Shown here piece by piece: positions 21,543 through 62,153 of a stretch of 64,000 nt of DNA (position 1 is the stretch's first letter; every line of letters begins with the position of its first letter). Below the pieces are notes generated by a model. The model made no database searches, was not told the DNA's origin, and worked only from the letters and a program-made list of their open reading frames with translations. Source of the DNA: an uncultured Gammaproteobacteria bacterium (GTDB lineage: Bacteria > Patescibacteriota > Patescibacteriia > UBA9934 > CAZDDW01); assembly GCA_964504365.1 (NCBI GenBank), contig CAZDDW010000003.1, forward strand, positions 8,031-72,030, written 5' to 3'. Both the position numbers and the translations under genes were made by a program.

Positions 21543-21734
21543 GGCCGGCCACTCCTCTTGTCGTCAGAAGCAAAGAGCCGAAGGGTTTTGAATTGTGGAA
21601 CGATCGGAGGCCGGTGTCCTTACTAATTTTCAATTTTCATTCAATAACCAATGACCATTGTGACATTGAAAATTCAATGTAAATTCTAAATTGAAAATTG
21701 TAAATTTATTATCTGAGGCTCCCTGTGGCCGGCC
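21543..21734. mobile_element. MITE-like element copy 1 (about 190 bp, terminal inverted repeats GGCCGGCCAC...GTGGCCGGCC)
   Basis: The left 75 bp (GGCCGGCCACTCCTCTTGTCGTCAGAAGCAAAGAGCCGAAGGGTTTTGAATTGTGGAACGATCGGAGGCCGG) and right end (CTGAGGCTCCCTGTGGCCGGCC) are near-identical to the ends of a second copy at 39009..39218. The termini are inverted repeats and the interior is AT-rich. Confidence 0.5.
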
Positions 21735-39008: not shown

Positions 39009-39218
39009 GCCGGCCACTTCTCTTGTCGTCAGAAATAAAGAGCCGAGGGGTTTTGAATTGTGGAACGATCGGAGGCCGGACTATCAAATCCACTCTATAA
39101 ATAAGTATCATTTTAATGTTCCGGCCGACGCCGAGCGAGGCAATGATCATTCTCGACCCAACCACCCTGCGGGCCGAGCGCTTCCACAATCAAAACCCTG
39201 AGGCTCCCGTGGCCGACC
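39009..39218. mobile_element. MITE-like element copy 2
   Basis: Same terminal sequences as copy 1 (CCGGCCACTTCTCTTGTCGTCAGAAATAAAGAGCCGAGGGGTTTTGAATTGTGGAACGATCGGAGGCCGG ... CTGAGGCTCCCGTGGCCGACC). Sits in the 3' untranslated region of the MFS gene, upstream of ugd. Confidence 0.5.
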
Positions 39219-39222
39219 TAGA

Positions 39223-43310: not shown

Positions 43311-43317
43311 AAGTTTT

Positions 43318-43357
43318 CTGGTTATCTGGTTATCTGGTTATCTGGTTATCTGGTTAA
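43318..43357. repeat. tandem octamer repeat (GTTATCTG, 4.5 copies) followed by three AGACAAC repeats, upstream of leuS
   Basis: ctggttatctggttatctggttatctggttatctggtta, then tagacaactagataaccagacaacaagacaac. Confidence 0.7.
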
Positions 43358-43448
43358 AACTAGACAACTAGATAACCAGACAACAAGACAACTCATACAG
43401 CCAAAATCGTATCATATTTAAGGCTCCAAGGCAATTTACTGCTTTACC

Positions 43449-43478
43449 TTGACAAACCCATCTTTCCATGCTTAAATA
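43449..43478 (+). promoter_or_regulatory. sigma70-like promoter (TTGACA, 18 nt, TAAATA)
   Basis: Lies upstream of the 43605 gene. Confidence 0.4.
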
Positions 43479-43604
43479 CCTTCTCATGCCACGCGCTGGG
43501 CAAGGCTCTCACAGGGTACTACGACCTCACCGGTCCTGGGCTCTACCAAATGGGACTTGATCCCTGATCCTTGTACTAGCGTCTACCACGAAAGGAGATG
43601 TGCC

Positions 43605-47526: not shown

Positions 47527-47838
47527 CTAAGCCAACTTTTCCAAACGCTCTTGCAGAGCTTCTTTAGTCATTGCTCCGGAAAACTGGTCAACCACTTGTC
47601 CGCCTTTGAAAACAATGAAAGTTGGGATGGACAAAATATTATGTTGCTGAGCCAGGTCTTGAGCTTCGTCAACATTGACTTTACCAACTTTGACCTTGCC
47701 TTCAAGAGCCTTGGCCACCTCATCAATGACCGGAGCCATCATTTTACAAGGACCACACCATGGAGCCCAAAAATCCACTAAGACCGGCAGATCAGACTGC
47801 ATTACTTCAGTTTGAAAATTTTCAGAATTCAAATCCAT
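47527..47838 (-). CDS. trxA: thioredoxin
   Basis: WAPWCGPCK. Confidence 0.9.
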   Translation of the reverse strand: MDLNSENFQTEVMQSDLPVLVDFWAPWCGPCKMMAPVIDEVAKALEGKVKVGKVNVDEAQDLAQQHNILSIPTFIVFKGGQVVDQFSGAMTKEALQERLEKLA

Positions 47839-47848
47839 ATAATTATAT

Positions 47849-47958
47849 TAATGACCAATGATCAATAACCAATTACCCAGATAATAATCAATGACCGAAT
47901 TTTCGAACATTGGTTATTTGGTAATTATTTTGATCATTGTTATTTGGTTATTGGTTAT
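47849..47958. repeat. ~110-bp AT-rich repeat copy A, built from inverted ATGACCAATGATCAATAACCAATTACC / GGTAATTATTTTGATCATTGTTATTTGGTTATTGG arms around TTCGAA
   Basis: About 85 percent identical to 61530..61641. The spurious plus-strand ORFs at 47891 and 61599 share the peptide IILIIVIWLLVILL. Sits between the infB stop and the trxA start. Confidence 0.7.
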
Positions 47959-47963
47959 TCTAC

Positions 47964-49994
47964 TTAGCGTTTTGAAACCCCTTCAATTTCAAGAACCTTT
48001 TTCTCTGCCTTTTCTGAATATAGTTCAAACACATCACCAGGCTCAGCTTTTACTTTTCCTTTATATTGAATACCACACTCCTGGTTCTTCAAAACCTCGC
48101 TGGTATCTTGTTTGTTGGCCTGGAGCTTAAGCATGATCGCCTCACCAATTATCTCATCTCCGCGCATCAGGCGCAACTTAGAATCTTTCAAAGCTGTACC
48201 TTCAATCACCTTAGCACCAATAATCCAACCGTTATCAGTCTTTTTAAAATTCATCAGCACTTCAACTTTACCAGTCTCTGTAACTACGATTTCCTCTGGC
48301 ATTAATTTTTCAAGACGTTCAACCATGTCTTCGAAAATCTTGTAAATAACCGAATTCTCCATGATTTCAACATTTTTATCACGAGCCAACTCCGCAGCCG
48401 TACCAGTTGGTTTAACACTAAAGGCGTAGATCACGGCCTTACTTGCCTCAGCTGCCAAAACCTCAGAGTCTGTCACATCTCCAAGACCCTTGTCCAAAAT
48501 CTTCACCTCAACGTGCGGATTTTTTTGCAGCTTCTCAATCATCCCAAGCAGTGCCTCCAAAGAACCAAGCACATCGGCTTTAATGATCATGGTCAAACAC
48601 GGCTTGGTCTGTTCCTCATCTTCAACAACAGGGGCAATCTTAGTCGCAGTAACCTCATCAATTGCAGCAGATTTAACTGTCTTGAACTTTGTTTTTTTCA
48701 AATCTTTTATATTTTCTGGAACTTCAATCACATCACCCACAGTTGGTGCAGCCTTGAAGCCAAGAACACGAACCGGGGTCGATGGTAATGCCTCTTTAAC
48801 ATTTTTATTCTGCCAATCTTGCATTGCCTTAACTTTTCCATAAAGCATGCCGCGCACACCAAGCGGATCACCAACGCGGAGTGTTCCAGTCTGAACCAAT
48901 GCAGTAACCACAGGCCCAGCACCTGGATCAATTTTAGAATCAATCACTGTTCCAATTGCTGTGCGTTCTGGATTGGCCACAATCTTTTCTTTTTCCATGT
49001 CAGCCACCAAAATCAACATGTCTAAAATATCGTCGATACCAATCTGTTTCTTTGCCGAAATTGGAACCATGATCGTATCCCCTCCCCAATCTTCTGGATT
49101 CAAACCTTTTTCTGCTAGCTGGCCTTTTACCATGTCAATATTCTGTTCCGCTTTGTCGATCTTGTTCAATGCAACAATAAAAGGCATGCCTGATGCCTTG
49201 ATAATATCAATTGCCTCGCGAGTCTGCGGCTGAATTCCATCGTCCACAGCAACAACCAAAATTGCAATATCAGCCACCTTGGCTCCACGCGAACGCATGA
49301 CCGTAAAAGCTTCATGTCCAGGAGTATCAATAAATGTCAGCTGTCGGTTCTTGCGCTCAACCTGATAAGCACCGATGTGCTGAGTAATTCCACCAGCCTC
49401 TTCGTCAACCACGTTAGTTGTTCTAATAGCATCAAGCAATTTGGTCTTTCCATGATCAACGTGTCCCATGACAACAACAACCGGAGGTCGCTCAACTGCA
49501 TCTTTTTTATCTTCCCCTTCCAAAATCTCACCAACTCGTTCTAGATCTGCCTCCTGTTCTTCATCTGGACTTTCCTCCTCAGCCTTAGCTTCAAACCCAA
49601 GGTCAGAAGCAATAATGGCTGCGGTTTCAAAATCGATCGTATCATTCAACGAGGCCAAGATTCCGGCCTTCATCAACTCTTGCATTACCTTGGCAACCGG
49701 CAATTCCAAACGTCCGGCAAATTCACGCACAGCAATTGTTGGCGGCAAAGCAACTGGCTTTTTTGGAGCCTGATCTTCTGCTCCAGCTCCGGCTGCTTGC
49801 TGCTGCTGGGCCTCACGTTTCATCTTCAGTCTCTGTCGTCGACGATACTCACCCCAAGCATTCATGATCTGATTAGCAATCCGATCATCAACCTTAATCG
49901 CTTTCTTTCCAATACTAAAACCGAGCTCAGGCAACTTCTCCCTAAGCTCTTCTGGGTTAACATTTAATCGTCGTGCTAGTTCAGTTACATTCAT
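47964..49994 (-). CDS. infB: translation initiation factor IF-2
   Basis: [16 protein letters not shown] and NKID motifs; C-terminal beta-barrels. Confidence 0.9.
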   Translation of the reverse strand: MNVTELARRLNVNPEELREKLPELGFSIGKKAIKVDDRIANQIMNAWGEYRRRQRLKMKREAQQQQAAGAGAEDQAPKKPVALPPTIAVREFAGRLELPVAKVMQELMKAGILASLNDTIDFETAAIIASDLGFEAKAEEESPDEEQEADLERVGEILEGEDKKDAVERPPVVVVMGHVDHGKTKLLDAIRTTNVVDEEAGGITQHIGAYQVERKNRQLTFIDTPGHEAFTVMRSRGAKVADIAILVVAVDDGIQPQTREAIDIIKASGMPFIVALNKIDKAEQNIDMVKGQLAEKGLNPEDWGGDTIMVPISAKKQIGIDDILDMLILVADMEKEKIVANPERTAIGTVIDSKIDPGAGPVVTALVQTGTLRVGDPLGVRGMLYGKVKAMQDWQNKNVKEALPSTPVRVLGFKAAPTVGDVIEVPENIKDLKKTKFKTVKSAAIDEVTATKIAPVVEDEEQTKPCLTMIIKADVLGSLEALLGMIEKLQKNPHVEVKILDKGLGDVTDSEVLAAEASKAVIYAFSVKPTGTAAELARDKNVEIMENSVIYKIFEDMVERLEKLMPEEIVVTETGKVEVLMNFKKTDNGWIIGAKVIEGTALKDSKLRLMRGDEIIGEAIMLKLQANKQDTSEVLKNQECGIQYKGKVKAEPGDVFELYSEKAEKKVLEIEGVSKR

Positions 49995-50024
49995 AGTGCG
50001 CCTATTCTACTAAATTCCGCTTAA

Positions 50025-50440
50025 AAAGTAAAGACCGCCGGGTTAATCGGCGGTAAGGACGCAGAACGTCCTAGAGATTCGGAAGTGGCCCAGAACAGGA
50101 ACCGTTGCAGTTCCTGCCTGGGACCACCCGACCACGTCGCATAGCCGTCGCACGACTTTTCATCGTCGGGTATTACCCGGCCAGCTGGCTCTTGGGAAAC
50201 GGTGTTCCGGCGCAAGCAGTGCCCGACCCTTTGGTAGTATTGCGCCACCATCGGTCGAGATTATTCGCGTTTTGTGGTTTCCCAGTCTGCCCCCTCGTAG
50301 CGAATAGCGTGCGTGGGCGTAAGAGACGTGGGTTTTGAAAGAGGATGGTGCGGCCCGGGGTGGTCGGGGTCGAGATCCGGACCGCACCAAACGGGACAGG
50401 CAACAGGAGGTGGGGCACGTTTTAGCCTCCTATCGCCGGG
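50025..50440 (-). ncRNA. GC-rich ~400-nt non-coding block, candidate structured RNA of unassigned class (RNase P RNA, tmRNA or an infB leader considered)
   Basis: No consistent reading frame (five short overlapping ORFs across frames), GC much higher than the flanks, many local helices (for example GGTGCGG...CCGCACC and CCCAGAACAGGAAC..GTTCCTGCCTGGG), and a minus-strand intrinsic terminator (accgccg-attaac-ccggcggt plus CTTTACTTTTT) ending 30 nt before the infB ATG. Confidence 0.35.
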
Positions 50441-50499
50441 CAAAGATTAAGATATCATGATTGTTGATTTACGTCAACAATGTGCTAGGATATGAGCAT

Positions 50500-51156
50500 A
50501 TGAATAACTTTTTGTTAATAGATAAACCAGCTGGGATGACTTCGCATGATGTTATTGATCAGGTACGTCAGATCACTGGCGAGCGCAGGGTTGGGCATGC
50601 TGGCACACTGGATCCATTTGCTACCGGACTCTTAATCGTAGCTGTAGGACGAGACTCGACCAAGAAGCTGAGTGAATATGTTGGTTTAGACAAAGAGTAC
50701 GAAGCAGTTTTTGTTTTGGGAATGCGCTCTGAGACTGATGATCCTGAAGGACCAGTCGCACCCAGCGAAACCGACCGAGATATCACCCGCGAAGAAATCG
50801 AAACAGCGATGCAGAAATTCATCGGTCAGATCGAACAAGTTCCACCGAAATATGCTGCGATCAAAGTTGGCGGTCGAAAGCTTTACCAAGCCGCACGTGC
50901 AGGTCAGGAGATCGAACGCAAACCCCGCTCAGTCAAGATCGACGAGTTTGAATTGCTCGATACTTCAGAAGACAATCACAAATTAACTGTACGTATCAAA
51001 TGCGGATCCGGAACATACATCCGCGCCCTTGCACGAGACCTTGGTGACGAACTAGGCGTTGGCGGATACGTTGAGCAACTTCGCAGAACCAAAATCGGAG
51101 AATACAAAATCGAAAACGCAAAAACTTTAGAGCAAATAAAAAATGGGTCCAATTAG
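50500..51156 (+). CDS. truB: tRNA pseudouridine(55) synthase
   Basis: LLIDKPAGMTSHDV and GHAGTLDPFATGLL. Confidence 0.85.
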   Translation: MNNFLLIDKPAGMTSHDVIDQVRQITGERRVGHAGTLDPFATGLLIVAVGRDSTKKLSEYVGLDKEYEAVFVLGMRSETDDPEGPVAPSETDRDITREEIETAMQKFIGQIEQVPPKYAAIKVGGRKLYQAARAGQEIERKPRSVKIDEFELLDTSEDNHKLTVRIKCGSGTYIRALARDLGDELGVGGYVEQLRRTKIGEYKIENAKTLEQIKNGSN

Positions 51157-51172
51157 GACCCGAGAAGTGAGA

Positions 51173-51565
51173 CTAGAATTCGTCAGGGGAGACCAAGTGC
51201 TGCAAAGAGGCATAGACCGTCTGAATTGCCCCGATCGTCTCAGGATCCTTCAAAACCTCGAAAAGCTTGTCCAAGGGAATACCTTGGCTTTTGCACAGCA
51301 TGATCAGCCTGGTCAGGCTGGAAGCTTGAGACATCATCAAGATAGAAAAACAGGACTCTCGATCTACCCCCATGCTCTCGGCGATACCGTCGAGCAAGGT
51401 CATCAGGTGGTCAGGCAGAGAAATCCAGTTCCCCTCTCGCGACAGAGAATCCTGGTAGACATTTGCCAGATATTCTTCGACCGTGATTCCACGAGCTGCG
51501 GCAGCCTCGACTGCTTGCGCGTGAAATTCATCTTCGACCTCGATTTCGATAGTGACTCGTGGCAC
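51173..51565 (-). CDS. GC-rich hypothetical protein whose N-terminus looks like a ribbon-helix-helix fold
   Basis: GTG start with ribosome-binding site gaaggga; N-terminus VTIEIEVEDEFHAQAVEAAAARGITVEEYLANV (strand plus two helices); convergent with truB. Confidence 0.35.
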   Translation of the reverse strand: MPRVTIEIEVEDEFHAQAVEAAAARGITVEEYLANVYQDSLSREGNWISLPDHLMTLLDGIAESMGVDRESCFSILMMSQASSLTRLIMLCKSQGIPLDKLFEVLKDPETIGAIQTVYASLQHLVSPDEF

Positions 51566-51923
51566 GATATATCCCTTCTGAAGGTGCTACGAGTAGTCTA
51601 TCAGCACCTCACAAACTGTCAAGAATACAAATTAGCTAAACTCCCCTACAAAACCCTCCCACCCCTTGTCAGCCTCCTCTATATATGCTAGTCTGAGCAA
51701 TGTAATTAATGAAAATTCTTGAAGGCTGGGAGTATACGAAAGGCACTGAACCGAGCGCACCTGGAAGAAACACCTCTATGACGTTTAAATTTTCTCTCTT
51801 AAAACTTCTGTTCGGTCAAGTTGAACCCGAACATAAGCCACAATCTAACGTCAGAGCTTAAGGACAGCGGTCCTAAATTTTTCGTAACTCAGACCTTCGG
51901 ATCTGAATATTTTAATATAATAT

Positions 51924-53453
51924 ATGGAAGCTGTATTTGCCCTGATTGCCCTAGCTGCACTTGGAATCGGTGTGTTCGGTGGATACTTGATCCGCAAAAC
52001 CATTGCCAAGAGCAACATTCATACTGCTGAGTCAAAGGCTGAGCAGATGGTGCAGGAGGCCAAGACCAAACAACAGGAGGTACTTCTCAAAGCTAAGGAG
52101 AAGGCCATCGCCATTATTGACGATGCAAAGAAAGATGAGGGTGAACGTCGAGCTGAATTACAAAAAGCTCGTCAACGTTTGGAAAAACGTGAATCTTTGT
52201 TTGATAAAAAATTACTTGACCTAGAAGATCGAAAAGGAAAACTGGAAAACAAGGTTAAGAAGGTTGAAGAAATTAAAGTCAACCTGGAGCAGGTCAAGGA
52301 AAGCCAGATGGCTAAGCTGCAAGAGATTGCTGGCATGGACCAGGAGACAGCTAGCAAGCGCTTGTTTGAAATGGTTGAAGAAGAGCAGCAAGATGCGCTG
52401 ATGAGTCGAGTGCGTAAAATGGAACAAGCCACTGAAGAAGAGTTGGAACGCGAAAGCCGAAAGCTCTTGTCTTTGGCGATTACTCGTTATGCAAGTTCAC
52501 AAGCAACTGACACAACCACCACTCAGGTTGACCTCCCTTCTGATGAGATGAAGGGGCGAATCATCGGAAAAGAAGGTCGTAACATTAAGGCCTTAGAGCA
52601 ACTGACTGGTTGTGAGATTATTGTTGATGACACTCCAGAGATGATCACTATTAGTGGTTTCTCTCCAATCCGTCGACAAGTTGCTAAACGCGCATTAGAT
52701 ATTTTGATCAAAGACGGACGCATTCATCCAGCACGTATTGAAGATTCAGTACAAGAGGCTAAGAAAAGTCTGGCTCTGGAGATTAGAAAAGCTGGAGAAG
52801 AGGCGTTGTATCAGTTGGGTCTTCCTGTTTCTTCGATCGATCCAAAGCTTGTTTCAATCTTAGGACGCCTACGCTTCCGATCTAGTTACGGACAAAACGT
52901 TCTTCAACACTCAATCGAAGTGGCTCAACTTTCTGCCTCAATGGCCGAGGAGCTTGGGGCTGACGTGGCTGTATGTCGAAAAGGTGGCCTGTTCCATGAT
53001 ATTGGAAAAGCTGTTGACCATGATATGCAGGGCGCCCACCCAGAGATCGGTTACAACATCATGAAAAAATTCAAGTTTGCTGAAGAGGTCTGTTATCAGT
53101 CTATTGCTCACCACGAGGATAAGCCAAAAACAATCGAAGGAGCAATTATTAAAGCTGCTGATGGAATCAGTGGTGCACGACCTGGTGCACGTAAGCAAAC
53201 CCTGGAACAATTCTTGCAGCGTATGGAAGAACTTGAGGACACAGCATCAAACTTCCCTGGTGTAGAAAAAGCTTATGCTATTCAGGCTGGACGTGAAGTG
53301 CGCGTGTTTGTGCAACCGCAAGAGATTGATGACTTCAATGCTTACAAAATGGCTAAGGACATTGCACAGAAAATTGAAAGCGAATTGCAGTATCCAGGAG
53401 AGGTCAAAGTTACTTTGATCCGTGAAACTCGAGTTATCGAGTACGCGCGGTAG
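51924..53453 (+). CDS. rny: ribonuclease Y
   Basis: N-terminal transmembrane helix, coiled coil, KH domain (GRIIGKEGRNIKALE) and HD domain (LFHDIGKA). Confidence 0.85.
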   Translation: MEAVFALIALAALGIGVFGGYLIRKTIAKSNIHTAESKAEQMVQEAKTKQQEVLLKAKEKAIAIIDDAKKDEGERRAELQKARQRLEKRESLFDKKLLDLEDRKGKLENKVKKVEEIKVNLEQVKESQMAKLQEIAGMDQETASKRLFEMVEEEQQDALMSRVRKMEQATEEELERESRKLLSLAITRYASSQATDTTTTQVDLPSDEMKGRIIGKEGRNIKALEQLTGCEIIVDDTPEMITISGFSPIRRQVAKRALDILIKDGRIHPARIEDSVQEAKKSLALEIRKAGEEALYQLGLPVSSIDPKLVSILGRLRFRSSYGQNVLQHSIEVAQLSASMAEELGADVAVCRKGGLFHDIGKAVDHDMQGAHPEIGYNIMKKFKFAEEVCYQSIAHHEDKPKTIEGAIIKAADGISGARPGARKQTLEQFLQRMEELEDTASNFPGVEKAYAIQAGREVRVFVQPQEIDDFNAYKMAKDIAQKIESELQYPGEVKVTLIRETRVIEYAR

Positions 53454-53533
53454 TTTTAAGGTAGAGAGTAGAAGGTAGAAAGTAGAAAGAATCAGTCTCT
53501 CTCTACTATCTACTCTCTACTTTCTACATATTT

Positions 53534-54337
53534 ATGGAATCCACAATACTTATCTTCGGTGACGTCATTGGACGTATTGGTCGGGAAGCCCTTGCAAAGG
53601 CGCTTCCCGATTTGCGTTCTCAATACCAACCAGACCTGGTCCTAGCCAACGGCGAAAACCTGGCTCATGGTTTTGGAATCACTCCAAAGACCGTTCGCTT
53701 CATGTTGAATGCTGGAGTCGACGTGCTCACCAGCGGAAACCATATCTGGGCCAACCCGGCTTACAAGGATGTCTTTTCTGATCCAGAACTAAACCGCCGC
53801 GTAGTTCGTCCGCTGAACGATCCACACACCGAGGGTATCGGATATACAATTCATGAAAACGATCACGGCCGCTTTTTGATCATCTGCCTAAACGGCCGCG
53901 TCTTTATCGACGAATCCTATGGCATATTTTTCGATCCAATCGACCGCGTTCTCACAGATCTAAAAGACGAACACTTTGACGCTGTGCTGGTTGACTTCCA
54001 TGCCGAAGCCACTTCAGAAAAAAACGTGCTTGGTTTGTATCTAGACGGCCGCGTCTCTTGCCTTTACGGAACCCACACTCATGTACCAACTGCTGACGAG
54101 CGAGTCCTGCCCAAAGGCACAGCTTACATCTCCGATGTTGGAATGGTTGGTGCTCACAACCAAGCCTTGGGTGGTGAATACGAACCGATTCTGGAAGGAA
54201 TGAAGCAGGGCGGACTGGGCAAATACCATGTTCCAGAATCCGACCCAGTGGAAATCAATGCTGTCTTGGTCAAGACAAAAGACGGTCAAGCCACCTCAAT
54301 CGAACGGATTCAAAAAATACTTGCCAAGTTTCCATAA
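53534..54337 (+). CDS. ymdB: YmdB-like metallophosphoesterase (2',3'-cyclic-nucleotide phosphodiesterase family)
   Basis: ILIFGDVIGRIGREAL, GNH and GTHTHV metal-ligand motifs; conserved rny-ymdB synteny. Confidence 0.8.
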   Translation: MESTILIFGDVIGRIGREALAKALPDLRSQYQPDLVLANGENLAHGFGITPKTVRFMLNAGVDVLTSGNHIWANPAYKDVFSDPELNRRVVRPLNDPHTEGIGYTIHENDHGRFLIICLNGRVFIDESYGIFFDPIDRVLTDLKDEHFDAVLVDFHAEATSEKNVLGLYLDGRVSCLYGTHTHVPTADERVLPKGTAYISDVGMVGAHNQALGGEYEPILEGMKQGGLGKYHVPESDPVEINAVLVKTKDGQATSIERIQKILAKFP

Positions 54338-54388
54338 TTCCGCTATACTGACACGTGAATTCATAAACAAACTTTTAAAACCAAGCAT

Positions 54389-54682
54389 ATGAACAAAGCA
54401 GAACTTGCAGCACGTGTTGCCGACCGAGTCGGTGTTTCTAAAAAACAAGGTGAGGAATTTGTTATAGCCTTCCAAGAAATTGTAACCAAAACTTTGGTCG
54501 AGGGCGGTGAGGTAACCATTGCCGGATTCGGTACATTCTCAGCTCGAACTCGTAAAGGCCGTATCGGTGTGAACCCACAGAATCCAACAGAAAAGATCCA
54601 GATTCCACCAGTAGTTGTTCCAAAATTCAAAGCTGGAAAAGCATTAAAGGATTCATTGAAAGGAAAGCGAGAAGTACACTAG
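54389..54682 (+). CDS. hup: DNA-binding protein HU
   Basis: MNKAELAARVADRVGVSKKQGEEFV ... GFGTFSARTRKGR. Confidence 0.85.
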   Translation: MNKAELAARVADRVGVSKKQGEEFVIAFQEIVTKTLVEGGEVTIAGFGTFSARTRKGRIGVNPQNPTEKIQIPPVVVPKFKAGKALKDSLKGKREVH

Positions 54683-54729
54683 GAAATAATAAAAAGCGGA
54701 AGCATTTGCTCCCGCTTTTTTGATTCTAA

Positions 54730-55275
54730 CTAATCCAGTTCCCGCAGCGTTTCCATTATTTCCTCCCAATACACTTCTTGATTAACAAATGGTGAGAAAA
54801 TAATTAATCCATCTTCACGCTCTTGAATGTAATTTGTTTTAGTTACCTCACCCATTGCTGTTGTATTCTCTAATGCAGTCAAAATAATACCACCTTGGTT
54901 GATCTGCTCTTCTAGAACAATCTGCCCAGTTCCCTCAACACCACCATACCCACTAGCTGTGACTTCTTTAAACTGATCCAAAGTCATCCCTTGAGCAAAG
55001 AAAGCGTACATGAGTTGTTCTGCGCTCTCAGCTACAGTAGGATCATAAATTGAGAACAGCAAGCGCATCTCTGCACTCAGATAATAGATGTTGTCGTCGG
55101 CTTCTTTGTTGTTGAATGTATACTTGCCTGGATATTGGAAAGCAAAATTAAATTCTTCACTTTCAAAAATTTCCCAAGTCGGCTGAACAGTTGGCAGGTT
55201 CTTTTTTGGACCACCACAACCAAGTCCAGTAGTGACAAGCAAGGTTAATACTAATACTGAAAGTATATAGCGCAT
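54730..55275 (-). CDS. hypothetical lipoprotein
   Basis: Signal peptide followed by the lipobox LGCGG. Confidence 0.55.
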   Translation of the reverse strand: MRYILSVLVLTLLVTTGLGCGGPKKNLPTVQPTWEIFESEEFNFAFQYPGKYTFNNKEADDNIYYLSAEMRLLFSIYDPTVAESAEQLMYAFFAQGMTLDQFKEVTASGYGGVEGTGQIVLEEQINQGGIILTALENTTAMGEVTKTNYIQEREDGLIIFSPFVNQEVYWEEIMETLRELD

Positions 55276-55276
55276 A

Positions 55277-56551
55277 CTATTTCTTGTTTACAAAACTTTT
55301 TACTTCTTTAACGATCTGGTCGATCTTAACTAAACTGAATTCTTTGTTGGTTCGTTCTTTCCACTCAACAGAATCCTCAGCCAAGGTCTTTTCTGATACA
55401 ACTAAACGCAATGGAATTCCGATCAAGTCAGCATCACCAAATTTCTCACCAGGTGACATGCCTTCACGATCATCCCACAATACTTCGATTCCAGATTTTT
55501 CTAGATCATTATGTAAAGCAGACGCAACATCGTTGATTCGTGATACAACGGCCTCGTCTTTAGAACTCAGAGAAATAATCTCAACTGCATATGGAGCAAT
55601 CGACTTTGGCCAGATCATTCCTCGATCATCATGCGATACCTCAACCACAGCACCCATTACACGTGAAGGGCCGATTCCGTAAGAACCCATAACAATCTGT
55701 TGACTCTCCCCTTTTTCATCCTTCATGCTCATCTTGTTAGCGTCTGTGAACTTGGTTCCTAGCGGGAAAATATTTCCAACCTCGATTGACTTCATCTCTT
55801 CTACTTTACCACCACAATCCTTTGGACAAGCATCGCCATCTTTACCATCAAAGATCTCCTTGTTCCAAGCGTAGTCACAGCCTTCACAGAAGTAAATTGT
55901 GTCCTCACCAGATTCTGTTGGGGTTTGGAACTCATGCGAGTCCTTTGAAAAGTCGCCACCTGAAGCTTCGGTGTAAATGGCCCGGATTCCAATGCGATCA
56001 AAAACTTTTCGATAAGCATCAGCGGATTTCAAATAAAACTCAGCACGATCTTCTTCTGACAAATGAAAACTGTAAAAGTCCTTCATTGAGAACTCGCGTC
56101 CACGCAACAACCCAGACTTAGCCCGAGCCTCGTTGCGGAACTTGTCCTGAACCTGATACAAGAAGACTGGAAAGTCCTTATACGAATTCACGTACTGTTT
56201 AACCAGCGGCGTAATCACGTCCTCATGAGTCAAACCAAGACAATAGTCCTTGTCACCATGACCTTTCAGTTTGAACATGACGTCGATAGTATCCCAGCGA
56301 CCAGTTGTGGTCCAAGGTTCTTTTGGTTGAAGTGCTGGCAAATAAACCTCTTGTCCACCAATGGCTTCCATTTCCTCGCGAACAATATCTTGAATCTTTT
56401 TCAAGACCCGCAAACCAAGCGGCAGGTACGAGAAAATCCCAGCAGCGAGTTGATTTATAAATCCAGCCTGAAGCAAGAGCTGAGCATTGGCTGAATCAGC
56501 ATCAGCCGGCTTCATCTTATTGGTCTTACCAAATAGTTTTGAATATTTCAT
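55277..56551 (-). CDS. proS: prolyl-tRNA synthetase, short form without the INS editing domain
   Basis: Class II motifs with a zinc-binding C-terminal domain (FCEGCDYAWN..CPKDCGG); 424 aa. Confidence 0.85.
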   Translation of the reverse strand: MKYSKLFGKTNKMKPADADSANAQLLLQAGFINQLAAGIFSYLPLGLRVLKKIQDIVREEMEAIGGQEVYLPALQPKEPWTTTGRWDTIDVMFKLKGHGDKDYCLGLTHEDVITPLVKQYVNSYKDFPVFLYQVQDKFRNEARAKSGLLRGREFSMKDFYSFHLSEEDRAEFYLKSADAYRKVFDRIGIRAIYTEASGGDFSKDSHEFQTPTESGEDTIYFCEGCDYAWNKEIFDGKDGDACPKDCGGKVEEMKSIEVGNIFPLGTKFTDANKMSMKDEKGESQQIVMGSYGIGPSRVMGAVVEVSHDDRGMIWPKSIAPYAVEIISLSSKDEAVVSRINDVASALHNDLEKSGIEVLWDDREGMSPGEKFGDADLIGIPLRLVVSEKTLAEDSVEWKERTNKEFSLVKIDQIVKEVKSFVNKK

Positions 56552-56642
56552 ACGCCGCTTATGGTACCAAGATAGGCTAATTTATTCAAGGCTTGACCTT
56601 GCGCTGTCCATGTGCTTAAATAGCCGCACAAGGGAGAACATC

Positions 56643-56936
56643 ATGTTCCAAAAACTCGCAAAAAATACCTGGTTGCTCCTGCTGGCCATTGCTGGACTGG
56701 CAACTATCCTCGTCATCAAGATCGAAAATCCTTTCGTGTTGGCGATAGGCTCTTATTACCTGTTCTATGGCGTGATCCATTTGATGGGCAAGACCTTGCC
56801 CCTGTTCACTGACAAACACCGCAGATCGAAAGCTGCTCCGATCAAGCTTGTCGCCAGCCCGCTCGCAACGCTTTTCCTGTTCGCTACCGGAGCTTGCCTG
56901 ATCTACTTCTACCACTTCCCACTCTCGGCTTCGTAG
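56643..56936 (+). CDS. small membrane protein (97 aa, 2-3 transmembrane helices)
   Basis: Ribosome-binding site gggag, hydrophobic helices, and hairpin terminator gcgcc-tcact-ggcgc followed by seven T's immediately after. Confidence 0.45.
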   Translation: MFQKLAKNTWLLLLAIAGLATILVIKIENPFVLAIGSYYLFYGVIHLMGKTLPLFTDKHRRSKAAPIKLVASPLATLFLFATGACLIYFYHFPLSAS

Positions 56937-56942
56937 CCACCT

Positions 56943-57025
56943 CGCGCCTCACTGGCGCTTTTTTTGTTGGCTAAACAGACCGCCGACCAATAAAAAACCG
57001 GCCCTGGAAAGGGTCGGTGCTGTGT
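56943..57025. terminator. convergent terminator module A: plus-strand hairpin plus T7, then a minus-strand hairpin (ccgaccc-tttcca-gggccgg plus T6)
   Basis: Homologous to module B at 58048..58150 (shared GCGCC.ACTGGCGCTTTTTTTGTTGGC...AGACCGC.GACCAA...AAAAAA). Confidence 0.55.
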
Positions 57026-57045
57026 GAAGTAAGGAACGATGGTAA

Positions 57046-57711
57046 CTACTCAGAGTCGCTTTTCTGGGCCTGTCTCATCATGTACATGGCCAAGCCCTCA
57101 CGTTCGAAGGCCTGCAGGATCTTCTCAGCGTGGTCTAGAGCTGTACGTCGTTTGTCGACCCACATCCTAACCAGACAGAAAACCTGGTACGCAATCTGTT
57201 GCCCGTCTTCCTCGGTCTTGGCACAGATCTCAGACAACGGAGTCTCTTTGACAGTCACCTTGACCGCACGGTCATAGCCATGATCACACACGAAGTCGAC
57301 TCTGACCAAGACCCAGCGAGCCGTCCGCGTCAGCCCCCAAAAATGATGACACCCTGTCTCCTGGTCATCAGCGATAACCGTACCTAGGTTGCGGCTCCGT
57401 GACACAAAGAGGCCCTTGCTCTTCAGGCTCGAGACTCCATCAACCGAAGACACCAACTCGGGCTCATCATCCTCAATCTTGTGCTGGGACGAAGAGCTTC
57501 CGCCCCCCTTCTCGCCTTTGAGACACCTGACACCGCCCAGGCTCCAGAGCTTGATGTTTCTCTCCAGGTCTGGAGCAAGGACCCTGGCTCTTGCCTCCAG
57601 GATGACGGCCCAGTCCTCCTCGGTTACAGGTTCACGACGGGCCAGCTGTCTTTGTCCAACTGACAATGCTTCCAAATACTCCTCATAGGAGTCGAATCCT
57701 GGCACGGGCAT
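57046..57711 (-). CDS. GC-rich hypothetical protein (222 aa)
   Basis: Start at MPVPGFDSYEEYLE with a perfect ribosome-binding site aaaggagg and a terminator downstream; no recognisable motif. Confidence 0.45.
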   Translation of the reverse strand: MPVPGFDSYEEYLEALSVGQRQLARREPVTEEDWAVILEARARVLAPDLERNIKLWSLGGVRCLKGEKGGGSSSSQHKIEDDEPELVSSVDGVSSLKSKGLFVSRSRNLGTVIADDQETGCHHFWGLTRTARWVLVRVDFVCDHGYDRAVKVTVKETPLSEICAKTEEDGQQIAYQVFCLVRMWVDKRRTALDHAEKILQAFEREGLAMYMMRQAQKSDSE

Positions 57712-57866
57712 ACCCGGCCTCCTTTCGTCACCCAAAGGGCAAACCCAATGGTGATATTAACTTACTACAATATATAAATCCCATCAAATGTATCATCAGC
57801 ACCTGGTGCAACTCGGCGCTTTTTTCTTTGTCTGATTTCATGCTATGCTAAATACAAGGAGGATTA

Positions 57867-58034
57867 ATGGGAGAGAAATCGAATCTTTGGACAGAATTCA
57901 AGGAATGGCTTGGAGGAGACGCTTTGTTCTTTCTCCGCCTCGCCTTCATCGTTCTTTGCCTCTGGGCCCTCGTACCGTTCGTCTTCGCATTCTTGGAAAC
58001 ACTCTTTGGCGGAAGCACTTCGCAATCCTGAGAC
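57867..58034 (+). CDS. small membrane protein (55 aa: MGEKSNLWTEFKEWLGGDALFFLRLAFIVLCLWALVPFVFAFLETLFGGSTSQS)
   Basis: Translated by hand; ribosome-binding site aaggagg 4-5 nt before the ATG, one transmembrane helix, followed directly by terminator module B. Not in the ORF track because it is shorter than 60 aa. Confidence 0.45.
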
Positions 58035-58047
58035 AATTCCTTCCGCC

Positions 58048-58150
58048 TTGCGCCACCTGGCGCTTTTTTTGTTGGCCGAATAGACCGCTGACCAACAACC
58101 CGCCCGAAGCTTTAGCGAAGGCGGGTCATTCAATAAAAAATCGGCCAGGA
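58048..58150. terminator. terminator module B (gcgcc-acct-ggcgc plus T7), containing an inserted CGAAGCTTTAGCGAAGG-loop hairpin and a minus-strand hairpin
   Basis: Duplicate of module A, with an extra hairpin cccgcCCGAAGCTTTAGCGAAGGcgggt at 58100..58128. Confidence 0.55.
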
Positions 58151-58380
58151 CGACCGATGTGTCTGTGTCGGGCAATCCGACAAACAAGGCAGATGAGATC
58201 AGGAATGTCATGAGAAAGAACAGGAGCAGGACCAGACAAAGAACAACAGCCCAAGCAGACTTTCTGGTCACAGCAAGTGCAGTAAACAATCCGGACAGGA
58301 AAGAGCTAGCCGCAATCATTAGAAACAAGATCATCATTTCCTCCAAAACCAACCTTACACCAACCCGCTAGAAAAGAAAA

Positions 58381-58405
58381 ATCCCTCGTTGCCGAGGGGC
58401 GATGA
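58381..58405 (-). terminator. terminator of the 58434 gene
   Basis: ccctcg-ttgc-cgaggg hairpin followed by ATTTTTCTTTT on the minus strand. Confidence 0.5.
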
Positions 58406-58433
58406 GGGACAGGTCCAATCAAGGGCGATCGGA

Positions 58434-58640
58434 CTAGATGGGCTTGTACTGCCAGCCCTGCCGTTCGCAGAACTCGGCCACCGAGACAGAGCCCTCGCGG
58501 AGTCGTTGGTGCAGTTCGTCGGCCTCGTCAGCCGGGATCACGGGCGGGCGAGTCGGATTGCCCTGGTCGTCGAAGAAACGGATCGGATGTGTGCGTGCGT
58601 TGGATGCTGGACCGGCTTCCCAGTCGGGTTTGGCCATACT
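58434..58640 (-). CDS. GC-rich small hypothetical protein (about 68 aa)
   Basis: ATG preceded by ribosome-binding site aggagg with 5 nt spacing; sequence MAKPDWEAGPASNARTHPIRFFDDQGNPTRPPV...; terminator downstream. Confidence 0.4.
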   Translation of the reverse strand, partial: SMAKPDWEAGPASNARTHPIRFFDDQGNPTRPPVIPADEADELHQRLREGSVSVAEFCERQGWQYKPI

Positions 58641-58717
58641 CACCTCCTAATTAGACCATATCATTATTTTACCAAAAATAAAAATCCGACCAGGTGGTCG
58701 GAATGAGTACGTGCGGT

Positions 58718-59149
58718 CTAGGCGCTTGCAGGTACGGCAGCGGGTGGGACCAGGCGGAAGATGCGTGCAGCGAAGATCGAGCAACTGTGAGCAAAGACCC
58801 TTGCTACACCACTCTTCTGGCTGACCGCGACCAGTGGGCTACCTGCCCTATAGCTGATCCAGGGTCCGGGCTTCATCATCTTCGCCGGAATCTCGTGCTC
58901 GGCACCTTCGGCGTAGGCGGGCAGGAGCTGATCATCTTGCTCGGCCATCCTGCGTACGAGCACGGTTCGCCAGGAACGATCGTCAGACCACACCTGGAGC
59001 TGCTCACCGATCGTTCCCTCTCGCGGGAATTCGATGCTGTCCGTCTGGACTGGAGCTTCTCCGGTTCGATCCTCGAAATATCGTCTGTCGTTTTCGCGTT
59101 CTCCCGTGTCTCCCATGAGAACGAACACTCCGACCGGCTGACTACTCAT
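58718..59149 (-). CDS. GC-rich hypothetical protein (about 144 aa)
   Basis: Start at MSSQPVGVFVLMGDTGE with ribosome-binding site aaggagg. Confidence 0.45.
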   Translation of the reverse strand: MSSQPVGVFVLMGDTGERENDRRYFEDRTGEAPVQTDSIEFPREGTIGEQLQVWSDDRSWRTVLVRRMAEQDDQLLPAYAEGAEHEIPAKMMKPGPWISYRAGSPLVAVSQKSGVARVFAHSCSIFAARIFRLVPPAAVPASA

Positions 59150-59229
59150 GAGGCCTCCTTGCTGTCGTAGCTCACGACTAAAAGATCTTGCCACAAAAAC
59201 CTGATACTGTCAATTCCTGGTATTTCAGG

Positions 59230-59258
59230 TTGACATTTATCAAGAAATATAGTATATT
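59230..59258 (+). promoter_or_regulatory. sigma70 promoter upstream of tRNA-Lys (TTGACA, 17 nt, TATATT)
   Basis: TTGACA tttatcaagaaatatag TATATT lies about 15 nt before the tRNA 5' end. Confidence 0.5.
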
Positions 59259-59273
59259 TGCGACCACAAGTAT

Positions 59274-59350
59274 GCCCCGTTAGCTCAGCCCGGTAGAGCA
59301 GTTGGCTCTTAACCAAACGGTCGCAGGTTCGAGTCCTGCACGGGGCACCA
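59274..59350 (+). tRNA. tRNA-Lys (anticodon CUU), CCA encoded
   Basis: Hand-folded cloverleaf: acceptor GCCCCGT/ACGGGGC, D arm GCTC/GAGC, anticodon loop CTCTTAA, T arm GCAGG-TTCGAGT-CCTGC, discriminator A, then CCA. Confidence 0.8.
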
Positions 59351-59473
59351 GCCGTCGCTTCATCAGATCATTTATTGATGGCGCGACGGCTGCCCTTCGA
59401 AGCCTCGGCGAAGAAGGGCCGTGAATAAGATTGTGATGAAGCTATGGCTGGCAGGCCATGCTAATCACAGTAT

Positions 59474-59550
59474 GCAGGCGTAGCTCAGTTGGATAGAGCG
59501 TCTGGCTTCGGACCAGAAGGTCGGGGGTTCGAGCCCTCCCGCCTGTACCA
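59474..59550 (+). tRNA. tRNA-Arg (anticodon UCG), CCA encoded
   Basis: Acceptor GCAGGCG/CGCCTGT (G1-U72 wobble), anticodon stem TCTGG/CCAGA with loop CTTCGGA, T arm GGGGG-TTCGAGC-CCTCC. Confidence 0.8.
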
Positions 59551-59552
59551 AA

Positions 59553-59580
59553 AAACCACCGAATTACCGGTGGTTTTTTG
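59553..59580 (+). terminator. terminator after the tRNA pair
   Basis: ccaccg-aatta-ccggtgg hairpin followed by six T's. Confidence 0.6.
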
Positions 59581-59651
59581 TTTGTGTATTTGTATAAATT
59601 TAAAAAAACTGATAAAACTACTTCAGCACCTTCAGCATCAAAGGGGACGTG

Positions 59652-60263
59652 ATGGGCGAACTGACCAGAGACGAAGTCATTAACTGTTTTCGTGATTACT
59701 ATCAAGGTACTGTATACGCCTCAACAACAAACCAGATTGCCGCACGGGCAATGCAGAATGACTATTCCGGCAACACTCTTTACGAAAAAATTCTCAGTTG
59801 GCTTTCTCAATCTGATCAGGATCGTTCAATTTCATTGATCGAACTGACTATTGCCCATGACGTTCATACTCAACTTCTGGAAGACGATGACAAAGTCCAG
59901 GCTGAAAGGCTTGAAAGACTACTCCGTATTCGAGCAGGACTGATCGGAAATAGAACGGTAATAAACCCCACAGAGATCATTCTGGCCACTGAGCAAATCT
60001 CCCAGGCTTTAGATGACCTTCGACGAGAACAACGAATCGAAAGCTTTTTCAAAAAGCTGGATCAGTTGAAACAGATCTTGGGAACAGACGACCCAGAGAA
60101 GCTCGCGCAAGCCTGCCACTTACCAGCCGAGGTCGTCAAGACGGTCATCCTCCGACACGCCGAGGACCCGAATTATTGCCCTCACTACTTCATACTGACC
60201 ATGCTTTTCACAGCTGTCCGAACCGGTCTCAGAGAACCAGTAGCTAGTGTCCAAGAGACCTAA
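59652..60263 (+). CDS. hypothetical protein
   Basis: 203 aa, helical and acidic; hairpin terminator cccacatc-acgacg-atgtgggg plus T-run at 60266..60295. Confidence 0.45.
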   Translation: MGELTRDEVINCFRDYYQGTVYASTTNQIAARAMQNDYSGNTLYEKILSWLSQSDQDRSISLIELTIAHDVHTQLLEDDDKVQAERLERLLRIRAGLIGNRTVINPTEIILATEQISQALDDLRREQRIESFFKKLDQLKQILGTDDPEKLAQACHLPAEVVKTVILRHAEDPNYCPHYFILTMLFTAVRTGLREPVASVQET

Positions 60264-60271
60264 AACCCACA

Positions 60272-60829
60272 TCACGACGATGTGGGGTTTTTCTTTTTAG
60301 ACTGAGAATAAACACAACCACAATATTCTTGGCGGTATACCCCTAAGTCGCGAGCGCGGATCTGAGATAAATCTTCGCCACCGGCTTTTTTGAAATCTCG
60401 ATCTAAGAATTCGATCCCTGTCTCTTCGGCGATGCGCTGGCCGATCGGATTCACGTCGCTGGCCTTTTTGCGTCTTCCAACCGTAAGTGTGGTTGCAAAA
60501 CAATCAAATCCATGGTCACGCGCGTATTCGGCTGTTGCTCGCAAGCGATGCTTGAAGCAAAGATGACAGCGTGTGCCTCCTTCCTGATCTGACGCGTGAC
60601 CTTGCATTGATTCAAACCAAGCCCTTGGATCATACTCGCCTTCGATCAATTCCAGACCCAACTCTTTAGCCATTAATCGAGCTCCGGCAAGGCGCTTTTG
60701 ATATTCCTCTTCTGGATGAATATTTGGATTAAAATAAAACAAAGTCACTTCGTGATCGTGACTAAGTTTCTTCGGGACCCAAGCGCCACAGGTTCCGCAA
60801 CAAACATGGAGGAGTAATTTCTTTACCAT
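60272..60829 (-). CDS. queH: epoxyqueuosine reductase QueH (DUF208 family)
   Basis: LLLHVCCGTCGA plus the conserved Cys pattern (CHLCF, CGC). Confidence 0.65.
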   Translation of the reverse strand: MVKKLLLHVCCGTCGAWVPKKLSHDHEVTLFYFNPNIHPEEEYQKRLAGARLMAKELGLELIEGEYDPRAWFESMQGHASDQEGGTRCHLCFKHRLRATAEYARDHGFDCFATTLTVGRRKKASDVNPIGQRIAEETGIEFLDRDFKKAGGEDLSQIRARDLGVYRQEYCGCVYSQSKKKNPTSS

Positions 60830-61521
60830 CCCTTCTTTTCCAAAGCTGCGGCTGCTGCTGCCACTTGTCCTTCGTGTTTACTGGTTCCTTCCCCTTCAGC
60901 AATCAATTCTTTATTCAAATAAACTCCAACAACAAACTTCTTATTGTGATCTGGGCCTGATTCTTCCAGAACTTTATACGACGGGGTAACGCTAAATCGA
61001 TCCTGAGATGCTTCCTGAAAACGGCTCTTTGGATCAATGTATAACTTCTGCTCCAAAATTCGAGGCAGTTCAGCCAGGTTTGTTCGAGTAATAAATTCTT
61101 TTGACACATCCCAACCTTGATCCTCATAGATTGCTCCGATGATTGCTTCAAAAGCGTTAGCCAAAATGTATCGTCTTGCCTTAGAATCCGTATCCTTGGA
61201 CTCACCCTTAGACAAATACAGATAGTCATCAACATCCAACTTGATACACATATCAGCGTTCATCTCAGCATTTACCAAAGCTGCACGCCAGTTAGTTAGC
61301 TCTCCTTCGGGATTATCAAAATTGTCATACAAGTGCTCTGTAACAACCAACTCAAGCACAGCATCTCCCAAAAACTCTAAACGTTCATTATGCCCCAAAT
61401 GAAAACTTGGGTGTTCATTAATATAACTGCGATGAACAAGCGCTTGGCGCAAATTATCAATTTTTTGAAACTTCACGCCGAGCGTTTCTTCTAGTTTAGA
61501 CAAATCTTTTTCTTCAGACAT
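60823..61521 (-). CDS. rnc: ribonuclease III
   Basis: HRSYINEH...NERLEFLGDAVLELVV signature plus a C-terminal dsRBD; start at MSEEKDL. Confidence 0.85.
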   Translation of the reverse strand: MSEEKDLSKLEETLGVKFQKIDNLRQALVHRSYINEHPSFHLGHNERLEFLGDAVLELVVTEHLYDNFDNPEGELTNWRAALVNAEMNADMCIKLDVDDYLYLSKGESKDTDSKARRYILANAFEAIIGAIYEDQGWDVSKEFITRTNLAELPRILEQKLYIDPKSRFQEASQDRFSVTPSYKVLEESGPDHNKKFVVGVYLNKELIAEGEGTSKHEGQVAAAAAALEKKGW

Positions 61522-61529
61522 AATCGTAG

Positions 61530-61641
61530 AATGACCAATGATCAATAACCAATTACCGAGATAATGATCAATAATCGAATTTTCGAACATTAGATCATTT
61601 GGTCATTATCTTGATCATTGTTATTTGGTTATTGGTTATTC
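61530..61641. repeat. ~110-bp AT-rich repeat copy B
   Basis: Matches 47849..47958; lies between the nusB stop and the rnc start. Confidence 0.7.
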
Positions 61642-62153
61642 TTCTCTTCCTCCTTGACCTCCGGTTTCTTTTCTTCTTTATTTTCTTTATCCTTATCTTT
61701 CTTTGGTGGCTCTTTATCAACTGCCTTTTCTTCTCCATGAGCGATCATGTGTTTATAAATAGCACCAAGTACACCGTTAACAAATCGACCAGATGCTTCA
61801 CCACCAAAACCTTTAGCCAACTCAATCGCTTCATTAATCGCCACCTTAGAAGGTACTTTCTCAGAAAACTTTAACTCGTAAGTTCCTAAACGCAACACAT
61901 TGCGATCTACTATAGTTATAGTATCCAAAGGCCAGTCAGGGGCAAAGTGAGTAATCAACTCATCAATATCTTTCTGATTTTTTAAAACTCCCTCAACAAG
62001 CTCAGAAATAAAACCACCGTCATCAAACTGCGGTGCGAATTCTTGTTTACTGTACTCCATCAAATCTGGAATACTATCTTTTGATTGTCCGGCAAAGTCC
62101 CATTGATACAATGTTTGCAAAGCAATGGTTCGAGCCAAGTGTCGATTAGACAT
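61629..62153 (-). CDS. nusB: transcription antitermination factor NusB with a lysine-rich C-terminal tail
   Basis: MSNRHLARTIALQTLYQWDF, with a KDKDKENKEEKK tail. Confidence 0.8.
   Translation of the reverse strand: MSNRHLARTIALQTLYQWDFAGQSKDSIPDLMEYSKQEFAPQFDDGGFISELVEGVLKNQKDIDELITHFAPDWPLDTITIVDRNVLRLGTYELKFSEKVPSKVAINEAIELAKGFGGEASGRFVNGVLGAIYKHMIAHGEEKAVDKEPPKKDKDKENKEEKKPEVKEEEKNNQ

Follow-up and report, generated by a model that had tools for sequence, protein, structure and literature searches.

A low-copy palindromic repeat with heptamer arms, probably of MITE or REPIN kind, in short intercistronic spacers of a Candidatus Uhrbacteria species

In a 64,000-nt stretch of contig CAZDDW010000003.1 (assembly GCA_964504365.1, positions 8,031 to 72,030 of the forward strand; the window from here on) an AT-rich palindromic element lies between infB and trxA and again, as a near copy, between nusB and rnc, the gene for RNase III. 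The locus raises the question whether such a hairpin-forming sequence serves the genes beside it or is a repeat that has spread into these spacers. The names on the closest Rnc, NusB and TrxA homologues point to a Candidatus Uhrbacteria host (Patescibacteria, the candidate phyla radiation or CPR). We conclude that the element is probably a low-copy, non-autonomous, dispersed palindromic repeat, akin to the miniature inverted-repeat transposable elements (MITEs) and to the REPINs formed by repetitive extragenic palindromes (REPs), with heptamer arms (AATGAYC/GRTCATT) of the short tandemly repeated repetitive (STRR) type and GTAG...CTAC-like termini. Sequence comparison shows that recent copying has put it into three or more very short spacers between cistrons in a single Candidatus Uhrbacteria species. 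We see it as a small dispersed non-autonomous repeat because the two full copies are copies of one another, because there are filled and empty sites, and because a solo arm is found at a third locus.

The two full copies, A and B, have the following parts.

47846-47963: copy A, whole element with terminal tags (TATT...CTAC), between infB and trxA; core without tags 47850-47959
47850-47896, plus strand: left arm of copy A, units AATGACC, AATGATC, AATAACC and AATTACC, a CAGAT bulge, then AATAATC and AATGACC
47897-47911: centre of copy A, 15 nt of non-repeat sequence (GAATTTTCGAACATT), with TTCGAA at 47902-47907
47912-47959, plus strand: right arm of copy A, units GGTTATT, GGTAATT, GATCATT, GTTATTT, GGTTATT and GGTTATT, pairing with the left arm
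61526-61644: copy B, whole element with terminal tags (GTAG...CTTC), between nusB and rnc; core without tags 61530-61640
61530-61576, plus strand: left arm of copy B, heptamers, from the sequence and Tandem Repeats Finder
61577-61592: centre of copy B (GAATTTTCGAACATTA), with TTCGAA at 61582-61587
61593-61640, plus strand: right arm of copy B, heptamers; the 44-nt arms are 77% complementary

An earlier note on this DNA had described a two-copy repeat of about 85% identity with inverted arms around a central TTCGAA. The repeat and its arms are borne out, the arms being present in both copies by sequence, by Tandem Repeats Finder and in the folds, but the identity was put too low: MAFFT gives 91% of columns identical (47840-47970 against 61520-61650) and BLAST 92% over 113 nt. 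All four arms are period-7 arrays, with the unit consensus AATNAYC in the left arms and GRTNATT in the right, flanking the TTCGAA loop; the palindrome is imperfect, and its arms pair from end to end. Between A and B there is no difference in the left arm's outer 28 nt (AATGACCAATGATCAATAACCAATTACC) or in about 32 nt of the right arm, and the 28-mer, allowing up to three mismatches, occurs twice in the window against 0.00 expected from 100 shuffles. The palindrome runs 4 nt past the core on each side, into the GTAG/CTAC-like tags; at the outer ends of the five arms stand GTAG (left arm of B), GTAG (A, on the minus strand), GAAG, GTAC-A and TATT. The element is non-coding and 112-120 bp in size, and GTAGAATGACCAAT is the end sequence that a parent insertion sequence (IS) would have to share with it. 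Since the order of the heterogeneous units, the bulge (CAGAT in A, GAGAT in B) and the non-repeat loop are all common to both, A and B evidently descend from one another and not from independent slippage.

Third-copy evidence comes from L258, in which a single arm lies at 5894-5928, about 2.2 kb past the right end of the window, between a gene for a 162-aa protein and one for a protein of metallo-beta-lactamase fold. Its sequence includes CCGGTCATTGGTTATTGATCATTGGTCATTTGTAC, a match to the 3' arm of A and B in 27 of 28 positions. Set against the relative L265, in which the flanks are about 90% identical, it proves to be a clean insertion of 35 nt that follows directly on a TAG stop codon, and any target duplication in this filled/empty pair amounts to no more than an ambiguous CC. 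Alone, this arm fails to fold (z = +1.3 and +0.8). The three loci, two hairpin doublets and one single arm, span about 18.4 kb and have the same orientation relative to transcription. This partial copy is the only further one in the approximately 83 kb available, which includes the remaining 8 kb or so of L258 to the right of the window and 8.6 kb to the left.

The junctions of the relatives are empty. At nusB-rnc the gap is 3 nt in L265-L267 (NusB 95% identical where it aligns, which is 66% of the query) and in L251 (Rnc 89% identical), 10 nt in L253 (Rnc 82%) and 47 nt in L255 (Rnc 83%), where it holds an unrelated small hairpin of TTTTAAC heptamers. For the closest relative by Rnc (96% identical) the gap is 57 nt, as known from gene spacing and protein tails alone. 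At infB-trxA the spacer is A-rich and 24-34 nt long in L255, in L268-L271 and in a JGI contig. Copies of the family were looked for in those relatives' loci for which there is DNA, and there were none at either junction or elsewhere in these loci. As the orthologous junctions of all relatives examined lack the element, its presence at both is, so far as these comparisons go, a lineage-specific gain, and the idea of a conserved intergenic element at orthologous sites has to be given up. Among the options that the earlier note listed, a REP-like mobile repeat is the best supported, by the empty orthologous junctions together with the clean 35-nt third insertion.

Within the species the element is nearly invariant. 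Copy A shows no differences in 10 of 10 independent same-species contigs, and the seven other contigs of the species that carry copy B each differ from the window by one SNP.

61604, plus strand: the one site at which contigs of the species were seen to differ, with C in the window and A in the other seven, A being the state in copy A

There was no variation in length or unit number in any of these 17 contigs (10 for A, 7 for B), so that phase variation is unlikely.

Several points weigh against a mobile repeat and should be set beside this evidence. There are only three loci in about 83 kb, which is some 8% of a genome of roughly 1 Mb. No transposase or REP-associated tyrosine transposase (RAYT) was found among the tested window ORFs or among the Pfam matches precomputed for the flanking loci (about 83 kb in all), nor any transposase among the unannotated ORFs of the window. 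Matching flanks or a target-site duplication were sought at A and B and were not seen, and no defined target is apparent either. Two of the three insertions are not clean, the spacer sequence having been replaced there. Finally, the strand read as mRNA is the weaker-folding one, and no selection for mRNA structure is evident. Movement of the repeat would probably be by a single-strand hairpin or template-switch route, either RAYT/IS200-like or by replication-associated copying between nearby sites; DDE cut-and-paste movement is less likely.

The genes at the two junctions, and the reading frames that the element creates there, are as follows.

47964-49994, minus strand: infB, from Pfam; its stop codon TAA, 47964-47966, adjoins copy A
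47527-47838, minus strand: trxA (Pfam PF00085, E = 3e-35)
61629-62153, minus strand: nusB (Pfam PF01029, E = 4e-39)
61629-61631, minus strand: TAA stop codon of nusB, inside copy B
60823-61521, minus strand: rnc (RNase III), from Pfam; the true start is MSEEKDL, the point at which homologues start
61522-61590, minus strand: in-frame extension of rnc by 23 codons, from an ATG in the loop of copy B
47848-47910, minus strand: ORF of 20 codons, from an ATG in the loop of copy A through its 3' arm, stopping 9 nt before the trxA ATG

Pfam backs all four of the gene identities that had been proposed. The placement of both copies between a minus-strand stop codon and the next start was correct for copy A, which directly follows the infB stop and has its core end 11 nt from the trxA ATG (47838). 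It was correct only in part for copy B, as its core ends 8 nt from the rnc ATG (61521) and the nusB stop lies inside it: the last three codons of nusB (N-N-Q) and the stop are copy B sequence, the insertion having overwritten the 3' end of the gene, and the NusB tail is not the same in relatives, ending ...EEKNNQ in the window and ...EENKKIKK in the relative with 96% identical Rnc. The 255-aa Rnc that gene callers give (P0372) includes the 23-codon extension, which is probably a gene-calling artefact. The plus-strand ORFs 47891-48130 and 61599-61874, already regarded as spurious, do begin in the element and are antisense to infB and nusB. Whichever strand is read, every frame of the 5' arm, of AATGACC/AATAACC units, has a TGA or TAA, and the G/T-rich 3' arm, of GGTNATT units, has no stop in any. 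Host genes lack Shine-Dalgarno motifs (none at about 60 gene starts), the usual start context being A/T-rich, AAATAATT-ATG.

Copies A and B sit within operons without terminator features and should therefore be transcribed as part of the mRNA. The transcript would carry, ahead of trxA and rnc, a long imperfect stem-loop whose interrupted helix has 32-45 bp. The folding check gave a clear result, both copies on both strands being far below shuffled sequences: on the plus strand A and B fold to -33.7 and -43.5 kcal/mol (z = -4.9 and -7.1), and on the minus strand, which is the mRNA sense, to -27.6 and -32.9 kcal/mol (z = -3.6 and -4.2). Folds of the element as single-stranded DNA are also significant. 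The sense fold is the weaker because G.U pairs of the plus strand turn into C.A mismatches. In the predicted mRNA-sense structures copy A has helices of 10+8+5+5+4 bp, about 32 paired positions, and copy B a longer interrupted helix with about 45. For the start-codon region the mean predicted probability of being unpaired is only about one half, 0.48 at trxA and 0.57 at rnc. The consequences are likely to be passive: cistrons that are 3-34 nt apart in relatives would lose their tight spacing, and the element can end upstream translation, as for nusB. The helix could also be an RNase III substrate or a barrier to 3' exonucleases, and on the predicted structure cleavage by RNase III is plausible.

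It is natural to ask if the helix is there for the sake of the mRNA, either as a stem-loop for processing or autoregulation by RNase III or as a stabiliser of the message, tuning the relative levels of nusB/rnc and infB/trxA. A copy directly 5' of rnc and mRNA-sense helices of the length given are what one would look for in such a device, and the differences between A and B in the stem include one that is compensatory (G-C against A-U) and two that are one-sided but keep the pair. There are also precedents. In E. coli, RNase III cuts the leader of rnc. Our element has in common with that leader a stem-loop directly 5' of rnc, but it is not conserved at rnc in relatives, where the gap is 3-57 nt. 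In the hmw 5' untranslated region of H. influenzae a heptamer simple sequence repeat (SSR) forms one arm of a long leader hairpin that is cut by RNase III (PMC12721329). However no orthologous junction examined has the element, those of close relatives included; one sequence serves unrelated gene pairs; and a solo arm that does not fold was inserted as well. Three of the differences between A and B break pairs, and arm-to-arm template switching can produce compensatory changes without selection. In seven palindromic-array hairpins we looked for a consistent advantage of the sense strand and did not find one. Nothing points to selection for the mRNA helix, given the weaker sense fold, the inconsistent strand preference and the partly broken pairs, and as the orthologous sites are empty this is not a conserved rnc autoregulatory or processing site. 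We thus regard an adaptive RNA device as unlikely.

The other explanations are weaker still. That each junction grew its own heptamer array by slippage and arm-to-arm template switching, with no movement, finds some encouragement in the excess of heptameric SSRs within bacterial intergenic DNA, ascribed to polymerase slippage (PMC4692102), in the small AATTTTC and TTTTAAC arrays that relatives have at the same junctions, and in palindromic arrays of unrelated units at 43313-43393 and 53458-53527 of the window, L253:4216-4304, L253:18152-18226 and L255:1761-1826. It leaves unexplained the 91-92% identity of A and B over about 113 nt, with the order of unit variants, the bulge and the 15-nt loop, and equally the 27/28 match of the solo arm; nor does it sit well with heterogeneous units whose number does not vary in 17 contigs. 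For A, B and the third copy the shared non-repetitive parts largely refute it, and we give it little credence. A role at the DNA level, as a binding site, a GATC/TGATCA methylation array or a cruciform affecting supercoiling or replication, is slightly less credible again. The lack of a consistent sense-strand advantage would fit a strand-symmetric feature, the single-stranded DNA folds are significant, and a number of GATC sites are present, with TGATCA twice in copy A and GATC four times in copy B; against this, no cognate protein was identified, there is no specific support, the orthologous sites are not conserved, and the units differ between arrays, which leaves no common site. A small RNA gene on the plus strand, antisense to the operons, is very improbable. 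The plus strand has the better folds and sigma-70-like hexamers end 0-5 nt before each copy, but promoter-like matches are no more numerous than in shuffled sequence (3 against 2.1 and 2 against 2.1), and they are explained by the start context AAATAATT-ATG, whose complement gives CATAAT at most of the gene starts. There is also no terminator and no Rfam family at gathering threshold on the element, the best match being a miRNA-precursor model at 25.8 bits against a gathering score of 74; in the window only two tRNAs pass. Least probable of all, to the point that we would hardly entertain it, is the termination element that the earlier note had allowed for, or an attenuator between the genes. 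A stable hairpin just past a stop codon does invite that reading, but the stem is AT-rich, with 45-50 nt per arm and no U-tract, and a terminator scan gives no terminator-like site at A or B. Canonical terminators with GC stem and U-tract are found elsewhere in these genomes (L255 I5, I6; I8), and the start codons of trxA and rnc, which are essential genes, come only 8-11 nt past the element.

A mobile palindromic repeat of this kind has relatives in the literature, and none matches it fully. The unit GGTCATT/AATGACC is a cyclic permutation of the STRR2 heptamer TTGGTCA. STRR hairpins made of heptamers lie between co-transcribed cyanobacterial genes such as hupS and hupL, where their function is unknown and transcript stability or translational coupling has been proposed (PMC2670836). 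Our element likewise has tandem 7-nt units in an intergenic stem-loop between co-transcribed genes. It differs from the STRRs in its CPR host, in units that are heterogeneous and not perfect and in an apparently low copy number (three loci in about 83 kb, where STRRs are highly repeated in the genomes of heterocystous cyanobacteria), and here the dispersed repeat is the whole 112-120-bp palindrome including its non-repeat loop. For REPs a GTAG tag and inverted pairs folding into larger structures are described, and for MITEs a role as RNA hairpins (PMC3733652). With REPs and REPINs the element shares an extragenic location, inverted doublets that form a larger hairpin alongside singlets, the lack of a target duplication, a position downstream of ORFs between co-directional genes and, less clearly, GTAG-like outer tags (PMC3733652, PMC3116915). 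In contrast to a REP unit, which is an imperfect palindrome of 20-40 bp, a single arm of the element is no stem-loop; its arms are AT-rich heptamer arrays, there is no RAYT in the 83 kb, and there are three loci where REPs have tens to hundreds.

MITEs such as Correia/NEMIS, ERIC, RUP and Nezha are, like the element, 70-300 bp long, non-coding, terminally inverted and inserted beside coding regions, and the element also resembles them in occupying multiple dispersed loci, filled here and empty in relatives, at low copy number. NEMIS are reportedly processed by RNase III. As in the element, if it is transcribed as we propose, MITEs are co-transcribed and form long hairpins, which can be processed by RNase III or RNase E (PMC3733652). 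Unlike them it has no target-site duplication, such as the TA of Correia elements, its arms are internally periodic with a 7-nt unit, and no parent IS with matching ends is present in the sequence examined. The hmw leader is similar in having a heptamer array in the arm of a leader hairpin (transcription of the element being likely from its position), and it differs in that its repeat is perfect, at a single locus and of variable unit number, giving phase variation, where the element is invariant in 17 contigs. Like the element, the small dispersed repeats (SDRs) of Nostoc are reportedly insertions of tens of nucleotides with no known transposase, often in or beside tandem heptamers; they leave hairpins intact, and a site filled in one relative may be empty in another. 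They differ from the element in sequence, host phylum and size, the 35-nt solo arm being comparable and the 112-120-bp doublet larger.

Heptamer palindromes are not confined to this species. A generic heptamer pattern was scanned against genome contigs and a more specific 23-mer against metagenome contigs, with at least 120 matches each, to unrelated AATGACC-type arrays; a 24-mer gave no match in viral contigs. Among the matches listed, 45 of 80 genome records with AATNAYC arrays are cyanobacteria, the remainder being spread across many phyla, and the arrays are palindromic in 15 of 120 metagenome and 7 of 120 genome matches. BLAST of the element against these 240 listed loci gave similarity at the level of the array only, at most 77%. 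AT-rich palindromes of the form (AATGAYC)n...(GRTCATT)n occur in metagenome contigs of 57-68% G+C (L137, L163, L198, L208, L214 and L232). In L141 and L217, of about 42% G+C, there are versions of 110-130 bp with termini resembling those of the element (AGAATNACCAATGACC ... TTTGGTTATTGGTTATT); L141 is not from CPR, as it has a lipid A acyltransferase, and L217 encodes glycosyltransferase-type genes only. In Candidatus Saccharibacteria, also of the CPR, L007:1145-1270 has four intergenic AATTATC units and, after them, units of the GTAAATT type, close before the start of a gene.

Unrelated palindromic short-unit arrays occur in the window itself.

43313-43393: palindromic octamer array, GTTATCTG five times facing AACTAGAC-type units, ending 2 nt before the leuS ATG
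53458-53527: palindromic heptamer array, GTAGAAA / TCTACTN, between rny (RNase Y) and ymdB, ending 6 nt before the ATG
21625-21706: weak palindromic short-unit array

The octamer array folds to -36.9 and -42.5 kcal/mol and is absent from the leuS leader of L268 and L269. At rny-ymdB L268 holds a fragment of a GC-rich repeat, and in L255 the two genes overlap. L253 and L255 have their own arrays, at the positions given above, and such arrays are no more conserved at orthologous sites than is the element.

We venture one broader and rather improbable proposal, to which we would give only slightly less weight than to the RNA device. The element may belong to a class of very small elements without target-site duplication (35-nt arm, 112-120-bp doublet, GTAG/CTAC-like ends) that would still be moving in CPR bacteria, either by a single-strand hairpin route with an unrecognised HUH/RAYT-like enzyme or by template switching in replication. 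Because (AATGAYC)n...(GRTCATT)n palindromes recur across phyla, such palindromes might be a module between cistrons that spreads horizontally or has been built by convergence. With one arm that stops ribosomes in every frame and another that is open in every frame, it could manage translation where there are no Shine-Dalgarno sites.

As a small MITE/REP-like repeat of familiar kind the element is of modest novelty, and its significance is chiefly for CPR genome dynamics and annotation. It documents active insertion of a small non-coding repeat in extremely compact CPR genomes with intercistronic spacers of 3-35 nt, in which the nusB-rnc, infB-trxA and rny-ymdB junctions and the leuS leader have repeatedly been taken by different small elements in related species. 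In annotation it affects the stop and last residues of NusB, adds a false 23-codon N-terminal extension to RNase III and gives rise to spurious antisense ORFs. We suggest that a hairpin beside rnc should not be read as autoregulatory without comparative evidence. Should RNase III indeed cut this hairpin, we would have a natural example of operon mRNA processing being rewired by a selfish insertion, in a genome without Shine-Dalgarno sites.

A word related to the element had also been reported inside copy 1 of what was called a MITE in the window. The match is of 16 nt with a BLAST E of 0.82, which is chance level, and that MITE belongs to a different, GC-rich family. The family has copies at 21544-21734 and 39009-39219 and a fragment at L268:1560-1624, between rny and ymdB. 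Its 71-nt 5' module is 94% identical between copies, the 3' module is CTGAGGCTCCC(T)GTGGCCGRCC, the middle is variable, the termini GCCGGCCAC and GTGGCCGGC pair together, and it has no Rfam match.

Some observations on other genes of the window and of its relatives may be added. In L268 an ISL3-family DDE transposase (6686-7672) stands between truB and infB and has no counterpart in the window. Downstream of rnc the strains are not all alike: the queH gene (window 60272-60829, 185 aa) overlaps rnc in the window, L258, L263 and L264, and in L259-L262 it is called at 133-135 aa with its start 150 nt after rnc. Terminator-like segments (CTGGCGCTTTTTTTGTTGGC...) are repeated at 56952-56993, 57802-57835 and 58046-58098, among short hypothetical genes without a Pfam match. 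Upstream of leuS the window (approximately 43440-43580) and L268 (19850-19990) have in common a conserved non-coding segment of about 110 nt; the segment matches no Rfam family at gathering threshold and has a motif like a tRNA T-arm, GGGATCAAGTCCC in the window and GGGATCGAATCCC in L268. The leucyl-tRNA synthetase itself (40404-43310, minus strand) has an inserted NUDIX domain (Pfam PF00293, residues 389-501), an architecture recorded for relatives as well.

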